Below, piece by piece: positions 59,597 to 62,907 of a stretch of 64,000 nucleotides of DNA. Within the stretch, counting starts at the first letter, position 1. Each line of letters opens with the position of its first letter. The notes under the pieces are model-generated. The model had not been told where the DNA came from and did not search any database. It saw only the letters and a list, made by a program, of their open reading frames with translations. Source of the stretch: Escherichia coli. GTDB taxonomy: Bacteria; Pseudomonadota; Gammaproteobacteria; Enterobacterales; Enterobacteriaceae. The position numbers and the translations under genes are program-made. The DNA is taken from NCBI RefSeq assembly GCF_041886205.1, contig NZ_CP169029.1; one strand, written 5' to 3'.

Positions 59597-60487
59597 ATGA
59601 TGTTTAAGCAATACCTGCAAGTAACGAAACCAGGCATCATCTTTGGCAACCTGATCTCGGTGATTGGGGGATTCCTGCTGGCCTCAAAGGGCAGCATTGA
59701 TTATCCCCTGTTTATCTACACGCTGGTTGGGGTGTCACTGGTTGTGGCGTCGGGTTGTGTGTTTAACAACTACATCGACAGGGATATCGACAGAAAGATG
59801 GAAAGGACGAAGAATCGGGTGCTGGTTAAAGGCCTGATCTCTCCTGCTGTCTCGCTGGTGTACGCCACCTTGCTGGGTATTGCTGGCTTTATGCTGCTGT
59901 GGTTTGGCGCGAATCCGCTGGCCTGCTGGCTGGGGGTGATGGGCTTTGTGGTTTATGTCGGCGTTTATAGCCTGTACATGAAACGCCACTCAGTCTACGG
60001 CACATTGATTGGTTCGCTCTCCGGCGCTGCGCCGCCGGTGATTGGCTACTGTGCAGTAACCGGCGAGTTCGATAGCGGCGCAGCGATCCTGCTGGCTATC
60101 TTCAGCCTGTGGCAAATGCCTCACTCCTATGCCATCGCCATTTTCCGCTTTAAGGATTACCAGGCGGCAAACATTCCGGTATTGCCAGTGGTAAAAGGCA
60201 TTTCGGTGGCGAAGAATCACATCACGCTGTATATCATCGCCTTTGCCGTTGCCACGCTGATGCTCTCTCTTGGCGGTTACGCTGGGTATAAATATCTGGT
60301 GGTCGCCGCGGCGGTTAGCGTCTGGTGGTTAGGTATGGCTCTGCGCGGTTATAAAGTTGCTGATGACAGAATCTGGGCGCGCAAGCTGTTCGGCTTCTCT
60401 ATCATCGCCATCACTGCCCTCTCGGTGATGATGTCCGTTGATTTTATGGTGCCGGACTCGCATACGCTGCTGGCTGCTGTGTGGTAA
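59597..60487 (+). CDS. cyoE: protohaem IX farnesyltransferase (haem O synthase)
   Basis: 296-aa from [18 protein letters not shown]; ORF-track start at 59552 is over-extended. Confidence 0.95.
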
Positions 60488-60506
60488 CACAACCTCTCAG
60501 TTAAAA

Positions 60507-60527
60507 AGGTGCTACGGCACCTTTTTT
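60507..60527 (+). terminator. rho-independent terminator of the cyo operon (AGGTGC-TACG-GCACCT + T6), A-run upstream so potentially bidirectional
   Basis: 6-bp stem, 4-nt loop, TTTTTT tract 20 nt after the cyoE stop. Confidence 0.7.
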
Positions 60528-60544
60528 ATTGTCTGAGATCAGAG

Positions 60545-60563
60545 ATACGGCTAATAACCGTAT
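60545..60563. promoter_or_regulatory. inverted repeat IR-A (ATACGG-N7-CCGTAT), candidate operator upstream of the antitoxin promoter -35
   Basis: Perfect 6-bp arms with 7-bp spacer read directly; same architecture as IR-B 55 bp downstream. Confidence 0.5.
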
Positions 60564-60566
60564 GTC

Positions 60567-60595
60567 TTGACAGAGTGAGCAGATGAACATAAATT
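60567..60595 (+). promoter_or_regulatory. candidate sigma-70 promoter of the antitoxin-toxin operon (-35 TTGACA, 17-bp spacer, -10 TAAATT)
   Basis: Consensus -35 hexamer at 60567-60572 and plausible -10 at 60590-60595, about 75 nt upstream of the antitoxin start. Confidence 0.5.
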
Positions 60596-60599
60596 AATC

Positions 60600-60618
60600 A
60601 TACGGTTGATAGCCGTAT
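60600..60618. promoter_or_regulatory. inverted repeat IR-B (ATACGG-N7-CCGTAT), candidate operator overlapping the predicted transcription start
   Basis: Perfect 6-bp arms with 7-bp spacer just downstream of the -10; contains the spurious ATG of the ORF-track frame at 60606. Confidence 0.5.
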
Positions 60619-60671
60619 TATGTATGAGATCGACTCCCTACGATTTCATTCAGTTAATCAAAGAGGTCATA

Positions 60672-60983
60672 ATGCCTGGAAAAACAGCCACTCTACCCGA
60701 TGTCGATAAAACGCTGAAAAATGCGCGGGTCGAACTCAAAACTAGTCCCGACGCCAAAAACAAACTTCGTGAAGCTGCGCAAGCCGTTGGGGTAGATTTA
60801 AGCGCTTTTATTTTGAGCGCTGCTATGGAACGCGCCGAAAGTGTGCTTGATAACCAACGTCGCCGTGAGCTTTCGAATCAAAGCTGGGAACTGATGAACC
60901 AACTCATCGCTGAACCTGCTCAACCGACGCTCGCCCTCAAGGCGTTAATGAAAAGGAAAAACAGCGATGGTCGACAAGCATGA
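60672..60983 (+). CDS. ribbon-helix-helix (DUF1778-like) antitoxin of a GNAT-type toxin-antitoxin pair
   Basis: 103-aa from MPGKTATLPDVDK, RBS AAAGAGG 6-7 nt upstream; RHH-like N-terminus (RVELKTSPDAKNKLREAAQAVGVDLSAFILSAAMERAESVL) resembling TacA/AtaR/KacA-type antitoxins; overlaps the toxin gene by 17 nt. Confidence 0.8.
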   Translation: MPGKTATLPDVDKTLKNARVELKTSPDAKNKLREAAQAVGVDLSAFILSAAMERAESVLDNQRRRELSNQSWELMNQLIAEPAQPTLALKALMKRKNSDGRQA

Positions 60984-61509
60984 AGAGATTACTCTGCCCA
61001 TAGTCCTCTCCTGTAATTATCAGTCTGATATTACTTATCCTGGGCAAAAACAGTTTGATTGCGGTAACCCTGTTATCGATAAATTTGTACGCGCATCGCT
61101 AAAGAAAAGTGTGCGTAATAGCGACTGTGCGGCTAAAGCACTTATTGACAGACAAAGTGGTGAACTGATCGGCATCTGTACTTTTACGGCATATTCGCTG
61201 GAAAAACAACGCGTTTCTGGCGTCCTTCAGGGTTCACAACCTTCAGAAATTGGTGTTGTCAGATTAGTCATGTTGGGGGTAGCACGGAAGTATCAAAAGC
61301 GGGGCTTTGGTCAGGACCTACTATGTGATTTTTTTGAACATGTAAAAATAATTCACCAGGCATTACCAATTAAAGGGGTTTATCTTGATGCTGACCCTGC
61401 CGCCATTAATTTTTATGCTCGTCTCGGCTTTGTTCAGCTTTCAGCGACACCAAATGCTTTTGGTGCTGTACCTATGTTTTTGGCGATTCAGCATATTCTC
61501 GCGGCTTAG
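60967..61509 (+). CDS. GNAT-family acetyltransferase toxin (TacT/AtaT/ItaT/KacT-like, probable aminoacyl-tRNA acetyltransferase)
   Basis: 180-aa ORF with acetyl-CoA-binding motif A (VRLVMLGVARKYQKRGFG), motif B (AINFYARLGF) and N-terminal FDCGNPVIDKFV typical of GNAT toxins; immediately downstream of and overlapping an RHH antitoxin. Confidence 0.85.
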   Translation: MVDKHEEITLPIVLSCNYQSDITYPGQKQFDCGNPVIDKFVRASLKKSVRNSDCAAKALIDRQSGELIGICTFTAYSLEKQRVSGVLQGSQPSEIGVVRLVMLGVARKYQKRGFGQDLLCDFFEHVKIIHQALPIKGVYLDADPAAINFYARLGFVQLSATPNAFGAVPMFLAIQHILAA

Positions 61510-61564
61510 ATTATTATCGCCACCCGCCAGGGCAAGTTTTGCCTCAGCCGGGGGCTGAGCAGCG

Positions 61565-62500
61565 TTACCACTTTTGTTCAATTGCCCCCGCTTTCAGCAA
61601 CTCCACATCCTTGCCGTTAATGGTTGCCGTTGCGGCAACGATTGTGGTCCTTACAGTTGCACAAGATTTTCGCTCAAATTCCGGTTTATAAAGAATAAGA
61701 GACGAATTACTGGTAAATGAACCAAATAGGTAATCAGTAAAGCTAATATTCAGCCGGTTTAAACCGAAAGGCGCGAAGCCAACCGTTTGGTTAATCTCCT
61801 TACCGGATGGGCGACGAATGCTGAATGTCACGCGAAGGTTGGCCACTTCGCCTAATTTATTGGTGGTGGCGAAGAGGCTATCCATGCAGGAAAAACCTTC
61901 ATCTAAAAAATTATCCCGCATCCCAGAACGGGTAACCGTGATCACGGGTAACGTATCGTCAACCGTTTTTCTGTCAATCATGTCTTTTCGACAAGTAGCC
62001 AGAAAGTCTTCCGGGCCACCATAAATGTGGACACCTTTATCAAGATATTCCTTCGCTTTCTTACAATCTACCTCAACATACTGACCATTGGCGTACATCA
62101 TGCCCAACCTGGACCATGCTAAATTCACACCGTATTGCGCGGCCTGATTAAATAGCGCATACGCTTTGGCATAATCCACCCGCACCTGCTCGCCGTCGTA
62201 GTAGATACTCCCCAGCGCTAACGGTGCTTCTCTGTCACCGTGTTTAGCGGCTAACTCGAACCATTTAATCGCTTCCTGAACATCAGGTTTGGTATCATAG
62301 CGAGGCTGATAATATTCCCAGCCTAACAGGCTCTGCGCGTCGGCACCCCCCGATTCAGCCATTTTATGCAGTGTATTTATAACATTGGGCGCAGGTTTAC
62401 CACCGTATATGCTGTCATACAATTCATGTGCTTTCTCGCTTGCCACCACGCCTGGTGAAACTATTAGCATTAAAGAAAATAGTATTCTTTTAGTTAACAT
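61565..62500 (-). CDS. secreted Sel1-like repeat (TPR-like) protein with uncharacterised C-terminal domain of about 150 aa
   Basis: 311-aa from MLTKRILFSLMLIVSPGVVASE (Sec signal peptide, AAAGG RBS upstream); about three Sel1-like repeats (e.g. AIKWFELAAKHGDREAPLALGSIYYDG, YAKAYALFNQAAQYGVNLAWSRLGMMYANGQ); C-terminal half not recognised; the ORF-track start at 62560 is probably over-extended. Confidence 0.8.
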   Translation of the reverse strand: MLTKRILFSLMLIVSPGVVASEKAHELYDSIYGGKPAPNVINTLHKMAESGGADAQSLLGWEYYQPRYDTKPDVQEAIKWFELAAKHGDREAPLALGSIYYDGEQVRVDYAKAYALFNQAAQYGVNLAWSRLGMMYANGQYVEVDCKKAKEYLDKGVHIYGGPEDFLATCRKDMIDRKTVDDTLPVITVTRSGMRDNFLDEGFSCMDSLFATTNKLGEVANLRVTFSIRRPSGKEINQTVGFAPFGLNRLNISFTDYLFGSFTSNSSLILYKPEFERKSCATVRTTIVAATATINGKDVELLKAGAIEQKW

Positions 62501-62907
62501 GTATACCTTTATGTTCTCTCTGTCATATATTTCCATAATAATTAACCACCAAACATCCATTTAATGAATAAATACAGTGCCATAAAGGCCCAAGTAATAA
62601 GCACACATTTAACCTGAAACATTATCATCGATGTCACCAAATCGTTTATTTAGTGAGATAAAAATAGCATGTTCGTAAGATAAAAAATGCACATAGCAAT
62701 CAAGAAATAATATTATTACTTTTGATGTAAAACTATTTAGCTTTAAGATTCATTTTTTTCAACATATAGAGCATTCATTTTATGAATGCAAAATAAACAT
62801 ACCTGACACACAAACTATTCTCCTCTGTAATATTTTCTCATTAACACTCTGTTTACCCAACATGCGCTCCGCACTACACTATGTGGGCATTTTTTTAAGG
62901 GGTGGTA

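Follow-up and report, generated by a model that had tools for sequence, protein, structure and literature searches.

The window, by which the whole stretch of 64,000 nucleotides of Escherichia coli DNA analyzed here is meant, carries two 19-bp palindromes around the promoter of the toxin-antitoxin module itaRT, and, judging from the sequence, these palindromes are almost certainly the sites through which the ItaR-ItaT complex shuts off its own promoter. It is highly probable that both of them (hereafter O1 and O2) act as itaRT operators, each accommodating one ItaT-ItaR2-ItaR2-ItaT hexamer that blocks the polymerase, and that this block is relieved upon the loss of ItaR or an excess of the toxin. 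The view of the repeats as autoregulatory operators of the antitoxin or of the toxin-antitoxin (TA) complex had been put forward in the original prediction, and it is supported by the identity of the module as itaRT, by the published repression by ItaRT, by the match to the KacAT operator and by the phylogenetic footprint. The accompanying idea that a palindrome is bound by one ribbon-helix-helix (RHH) dimer has to be corrected, as in the operators of KacAT type one dimer occupies each arm, the two being joined in a T-A2-A2-T heterohexamer.

Operators of this kind are already known for TA systems, as are the crystallographically defined operator of KacAT in the sister clade and two-site promoters in TacAT, and the itaRT result leaves the overall view of type II TA autoregulation unchanged. 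The new points are the assignment of O1 and O2 to itaRT, their consensus, and the distinction between a twin-site ItaR clade and a single-site KacA/AtaR clade. They provide operator predictions at the base-pair level together with a testable model, namely one heterohexamer per palindrome and two per promoter.

The itaRT locus and its promoter

The toxin encoded in the window, a GNAT aminoacyl-tRNA acetyltransferase, shares 179 of 180 residues with PDB 7BYY, the crystallized G115D construct of ItaT from E. coli (PMC7367177). The antitoxin matched the Pfam families TacA1 (PF08681, 1.3e-17) and NikA-like RHH (2.4e-5), its best PDB matches being KacA (3.6e-11) and AtaR (8.8e-9), and NCBIfam gave just a sub-threshold MobA RHH match for ItaR and none for ItaT. 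Since the toxin is nearly identical to ItaT and the antitoxin is an RHH protein of the TacA1/DUF1778 family, the locus is itaRT. Of 5426 complete E. coli genomes, 1368 carry the module, always after cyoE. In the window, the variable insert between cyoE and yajR (60672-62560) consists of itaRT and a divergent gene for a protein of 331 amino acids; in Pseudocitrobacter (L001) itaRT was found at the same place, after cyoE.

Direct reading of the sequence gives ATACGGCTAATAACCGTAT (ATACGG-CTAATAA-CCGTAT) at 60545-60563 and ATACGGTTGATAGCCGTAT (ATACGG-TTGATAG-CCGTAT) at 60600-60618, both with perfect 6-bp arms and a 7-bp spacer and with a start-to-start distance of 55 bp (Table 1). A pattern search for ATACGG-N7-CCGTAT, with up to one mismatch allowed, returned two copies only within the 64-kb window; the expected count, taken as the mean of 100 dinucleotide shuffles, was 0.05 per window, and none of the 100 shuffles gave two or more copies. 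The twin 19-bp repeats noticed earlier are thus found exactly where they had been placed and far exceed the chance level, and their reported position on both sides of the hexamers TTGACA and TAAATT was borne out both by the sequence read and by the promoter scan. In that scan TTGACA-17-TAAATT was the sole sigma-70-like site in the interval 60300-60700, agreeing with the consensus in 10 of 12 positions. Transcription would accordingly start at about 60600-60603, under O2. Upstream, the itaRT control region is bounded by the intrinsic terminator at 60503-60526, which follows the end of cyoE at 60487.

Table 1. Features of the itaRT control region and the neighboring genes in the window
Feature	Position	Strand	Basis and remarks
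cyoE (cyo operon) intrinsic terminator, hairpin followed by T-run	60503..60526	+	Terminator scan: 10-pair stem, T-rich tail
Operator O1 (distal), predicted site	60545..60563	.	Last base 3 bp ahead of the -35 hexamer
-35 hexamer TTGACA	60567..60572	+	Promoter scan; TTGAC invariant across genera
-10 hexamer TAAATT	60590..60595	+	17 bp past -35; T, A and final T invariant in 13 promoters
Operator O2 (proximal), predicted site	60600..60618	.	First base 4 bp past -10; covers the predicted transcription start
Shine-Dalgarno sequence AGAGG of itaR	60662..60666	+	Sequence read; spacer 60667-60671 (5 nt) to ATG at 60672
itaR, RHH (DUF1778/TacA-family) antitoxin, 103 aa	60672..60983	+	Pfam TacA1 match
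itaT, GNAT toxin, 180 aa	60967..61509	+	17-nt overlap with itaR; near-identical to PDB 7BYY
Tetratricopeptide repeat protein gene (annotated), 331 aa	61565-62560	minus	Divergent from itaRT

An 11-nt direct repeat (TGTCTGAGATC / TGTATGAGATC, window 60530-60540 and 60621-60631) brackets both operators, with 4 bp between its first copy and O1 and 2 bp between O2 and its second copy. Being kept only partly in Pseudocitrobacter and absent elsewhere, this repeat is probably a chance occurrence.

The function of the region is evidenced by the study in which the activity of ItaT was also published (Wilcox et al., 2018; PMC6125619). A 172-bp fragment from upstream of itaRT raised expression ~40-fold over a promoterless control; it was repressed to background by ItaR together with ItaT, whether wild type or catalytically dead, and ItaR without ItaT produced no repression (PMC6125619). 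If the designation '-183 to -11' counts from the ATG of itaR (i.e., 60489-60661), both palindromes and the promoter would lie inside this reporter. The need for the toxin fits the model of KacAT and AtaRT, because in these systems it is the toxin that brings the two RHH dimers into place for simultaneous contact with both arms, and the antitoxin alone binds weakly. The article of Wilcox et al. (2018; PMC6125619) mentions no EMSA, footprint, palindrome or operator, and in the itaRT literature found neither O1 nor O2 has been the subject of a binding, footprint or start-site experiment; the itaRT operators are, consequently, functionally implied by the published repression and unmapped in that literature.

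Conservation of the sites in orthologous loci

The ItaR orthologues were collected and aligned, and a scan in which each species was represented by one genome yielded 22 loci in at least 14 other genera; together with two viral contigs they make up the 24 fetched loci. The beta-strand KNARVELKTS of ItaR, its predicted DNA reader, is essentially invariant in 26 orthologues. An ItaT orthologue was encoded downstream in all 22 genome loci, and the identity of the ItaR and ItaT orthologues ranged within 57-90%. A perfect RTACGG-N7-CCGTAY element was present upstream of the antitoxin gene in each of the 24 loci, amounting to 36 sites in all. The 22 genome loci (72 kb) accounted for 32 of these sites, every one within 350 bp upstream of the antitoxin gene, against 0.015 expected from base composition, and the two viral contigs with ItaR homologues contributed four further sites. 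The sites have evolved together with the antitoxin gene and accompany it from locus to locus, i.e., they form a clean phylogenetic footprint.

The order O1, -35, 17 bp, -10, O2 is kept in 14 of the 24 loci, with the surrounding DNA being unconserved. The twin layout was seen in ten loci belonging to Pseudocitrobacter, Edaphovirga, Rahnella (four loci), Buttiauxella, Chimaeribacter, Trabulsiella and Serratia, and, with O2 slightly degenerate, in Phytobacter and Kluyvera. When 13 twin-site promoters from 10 genera were aligned, the invariant columns comprised the O1 arms, TTGAC, the TA...T of the -10 hexamer and the O2 arms, and no conservation was observed in the flanks and the 17-bp promoter spacer. 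The geometry of these 13 promoters is also restricted: 3-4 bp separate O1 from the -35 hexamer, the distance from -35 to -10 is always 17 bp, and 3-9 bp separate the -10 hexamer from O2. Nine Xenorhabdus loci possess an O1-type site only and Superficieibacter an O2-type site only, which means that either site can stand alone.

Within E. coli, most of the polymorphisms that distinguish four divergent alleles spare the arms. In strain TCM3e1 (L028) the left arm of O2, equivalent to window position 60601, reads ACACGG and not ATACGG; a perfect O2 is therefore not indispensable. This O2 is a candidate natural operator-down variant.

A scan of the viral_contigs set with TACGGCTNNNAGCCGTA returned 87 stretches, and two of the 80 fetched adjoin a DUF1778 gene; by a rough estimate, the others are judged to be chance matches.

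Comparison with known systems and the proposed mechanism

The closest structural counterpart of the itaRT sites is the DNA of the KacAT co-crystal from K. pneumoniae (PDB 5ZGN; Qian et al., 2019, PMC6698736). This DNA, AAATGTACGGTTATTAACCGTACATGA, has the form GTACGG-N7-CCGTAC with an A/T-rich center, so that the itaRT repeats share with it the core TACGG-N7-CCGTA, the spacing and the A/T-rich center; the two modules also share the antitoxin family (DUF1778 RHH) and the toxin family (GNAT). In PDB 5ZGN one KacT-KacA2-KacA2-KacT heterohexamer lies over the palindrome, the beta-sheet of an RHH dimer being inserted into the major groove of each arm (PMC6698736). The residues R8, D10 and R12 of KacA contact the bases, and the substitutions R8A and R12A abolish binding (PMC6698736). 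In ItaR these positions align with R19, E21 and K23, which are invariant in the 26 orthologues; the replacements of D by E and of R by K are conservative, not identical. The overall identity of ItaR and KacA is 36%, and for this reason the hexamer architecture of ItaRT is an extrapolation.

The position of the palindrome relative to the promoter is also comparable. The kacAT palindrome was reported to extend across the transcription start (PMC6698736), and the native kacAT promoter (L023) reads TTGAGT-17-TATATT-AAAT-GTACGGAAAATAACCGTAC; in the ataRT promoter of E. coli O157:H7 (L126) the corresponding part is TATGCT-TAAT-GTACGGTGACATACCGTAC. In both modules the palindrome directly follows the -10 hexamer, i.e., it occupies the position of O2 in itaRT. 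Unlike itaRT, both have an O2-type site only, without a site upstream of the -35 hexamer. The ataRT promoter carries, right after -10, the single full palindrome TGTACGGTGACATACCGTACA and differs from itaRT in having, in addition, a lone ATACGG half-site 8 bp downstream. This ItaR-type half-site (CCGTACATATTATACGG) belongs to the segment 355-377 of L126, in E. coli O157:H7. AtaRT is described as a heterohexamer repressor with the toxin as a co-repressor and with weak binding by the antitoxin alone (Jurenas et al., 2019, as related in PMC6698736 and PMC8138530), and the weak binding of AtaR alone parallels the absent repression by ItaR alone.

In Salmonella enterica, EMSA revealed two separate sites within ~75 bp upstream of the tacAT antitoxin gene (VanDrisse et al., 2017, PMC5449658), and the promoter was bound by the TacA-TacT complex and not by TacA alone (PMC5449658). 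The tacAT module thus resembles itaRT in its two-site promoter and in the need for the complex. It differs in the antitoxin beta-strand, which in TacA is unlike that of ItaR (e.g., NERLSLRVS, PDB 7ZG5 chain C), and hence a different operator sequence is to be expected. More generally, the type II systems with RHH antitoxins RelBE, CcdAB, FitAB and ParDE employ palindromes overlapping the promoter, the toxin as a co-repressor and control by the toxin:antitoxin ratio (PMC8138530), which is the same general type of autoregulation as that proposed for itaRT. Their sites are adjacent and tandem or widely separated, in contrast to the proposed itaRT hexamer with its two dimers bridged on one 19-bp palindrome.

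By analogy with these systems, each palindrome in the window would be a complete site for one ItaR4-ItaT2 hexamer. At each RTACGG arm, the beta-sheet of an ItaR dimer (R19, E21, K23) is expected to enter the major groove, the A/T-centered middle of the palindrome would absorb the bend, and ItaT would hold two ItaR dimers at a spacing that reaches both arms. As O1 lies directly against the -35 hexamer, and O2 directly against the -10 hexamer and over the predicted start, the bound complexes would keep RNA polymerase off the promoter. Derepression, in analogy to the relatives, would follow from the loss of ItaR or from a higher toxin:antitoxin ratio; the derepressing effect of excess toxin, known as conditional cooperativity, has been shown for KacAT and AtaRT (PMC6698736; PMC8138530).

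Alternative explanations of the palindromes

The original prediction had proposed looping or dual-site repression, and the two parts of this proposal fared differently: the spacing of 54-60 bp keeps no helical phase, which counts against looping, and promoter occlusion from two sites is the better reading. Cooperation of O1 and O2 through DNA looping, or through direct contact between the bound complexes, might be suspected from the occurrence in the window of two sites of identical type at a distance of 55 bp and from the Salmonella TacAT promoter, also two-site by EMSA (PMC5449658). However, we consider it distinctly unlikely, as the start-to-start spacing in the 13 orthologous promoters was 54, 55, 55, 56, 57 (seven times), 58 and 60 bp, which corresponds to 5.1-5.7 helical turns, and at the mode of 57 bp (5.43 turns) the sites face nearly opposite sides of the helix. 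In addition, the position of each site next to a promoter hexamer accounts for the spacing, a loop of ~55 bp costs much energy, and there exist single-site lineages with O1 only (Xenorhabdus) or with O2 only (Superficieibacter, kacAT, ataRT). A phase-dependent repression loop was rejected, since integral-turn spacing is not kept.

A function of the palindromes as nucleic-acid hairpins rather than protein sites, whether as a 5' stem-loop at O2 stabilizing the itaRT mRNA, as a terminator or as a cruciform, appears very improbable. It is true that O2, given a transcription start near 60600, would fold into a hairpin of 8 pairs at the 5' end of the mRNA, that the leader has a folding energy of -21.1 kcal/mol (z = -1.9), and that the terminator scan flagged the minus strand of O2 as weakly terminator-like. 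Nevertheless, the TACGG/CCGTA arms are invariant in 38 of 38 sites with zero compensatory substitutions, and the base at the outermost position changes irrespective of the one opposite, an A..C non-pair being found in 8 of the 34 sites counted. Besides, O1 is upstream of the promoter and so outside the transcript, neither site is followed by a T-run on the plus strand, and the same sequence is the crystallographically defined protein-binding site in KacAT. An RNA hairpin or terminator as the main function was rejected owing to the absent covariation, the A..C outer pairs and the location of O1; the O2 hairpin may have a secondary, minor influence on the stability of the mRNA.

Binding of a host transcription factor unrelated to ItaR, e.g., one tied to the cyo operon, is hardly credible and was rejected, for although the element directly follows cyoE in E. 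coli and Pseudocitrobacter, in other genera the sites are found with the module in unrelated surroundings (after ABC-transporter genes, in viral contigs, behind long leaders), they always accompany the antitoxin gene, and the region is absent from the E. coli genomes without itaRT.

Motif of the predicted operators and its possible specificity

With the sites regarded as operators of the ItaR-ItaT complex, their comparison permits a refinement of the motif. The 7-bp spacer is itself symmetric, of the form C-T-n-W-n-A-G, with C at position 1 in 26 of 34 sites, T at position 2 in 34 of 34, A at position 6 in 33 of 34 and G at position 7 in 29 of 34. What is conserved thus amounts to a near-palindrome of 19 bp in which only ~3 central bases are free, and the consensus of the itaRT sites is RTACGG-CT-nWn-AG-CCGTAY. 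In E. coli, both O1 and O2 combine one consensus half (TACGGCT) with one off-consensus half (TACGGTT).

At the level of half-sites, the ItaR clade is characterized by R-TACGG-C-T (C in 63 and T in 73 of 76), an A/T center and a free outer flank, and the KacA/AtaR clade by T-G-TACGG (T in 17 and G in 18 of 18) and a free spacer; in these counts only the positions outside 1-6 carry information, because the search pattern fixes positions 1-6. Plausibly, specificity is conferred by the shared 5-bp core being extended inward in the ItaR clade and outward in the KacA/AtaR clade.

The sister DUF1778 clade closest to ItaR (56% identity, beta-strand KDTRVELRTS, L032) was found on Klebsiella plasmids. 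In L032 (Klebsiella oxytoca IncFII plasmid CP056498.1) the 260 bp upstream of the DUF1778 gene contain no TACGG palindrome, the only palindrome there being the A/T palindrome AATTTTTTAATAAAAAAATT near the start codon. Operator choice can thus change within the family and the motif is not universal there; operator specificity seems to have been switched within DUF1778, as the sequences suggest.

Possible cross-talk with ataRT

A chimeric-query search of the E. coli genomes gave a match in 2599 genomes at 2994 places, from which it follows that itaRT and chromosomal ataRT occur together in ~395 complete E. coli genomes. About 410 would be expected if the modules were independent, so the co-occurrence reveals neither mutual exclusion nor attraction. 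Cross-occupancy is physically possible, because the TACGG core and the N7 spacing are shared and both modules are present in these ~395 genomes. It is a tentative and rather doubtful proposal that itaRT and ataRT are transcriptionally cross-regulated via the shared core, that the flanks insulate or tune this interaction and that the extra O1 provides a two-threshold response. If it were true, each repressor complex would partly occupy the promoter of the other module, and O1 would afford a two-threshold response that is lacking in the single-site kacAT and ataRT promoters. The clade-specific flanks (inward C-T for ItaR, outward T-G for AtaR/KacA) argue that such cross-talk would be at least partly insulated. 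Two antitoxin clades which are 36% identical and read the same 5-bp core with different flanks offer a natural example of the possible insulation, or its failure, between paralogous TA promoters.

Leader regions

The leader in the E. coli window is 53 nt long and is without a small ORF. In five other loci (L002, L003 and L010 from genomes, L089 and L099 from viral contigs) the twin-operator promoter is situated 210-245 bp upstream of the antitoxin gene, and the resulting long leader contains a small ORF of ~16-21 codons with its own SD-like sequence, e.g., MRNQSKALNFSRFIKLS, MKFTANVFNLNRFRCIF and MSLKKIQNLNNFKGIPFTGKR. This ORF could encode a leader peptide or represent a third gene of these five long-leader loci.
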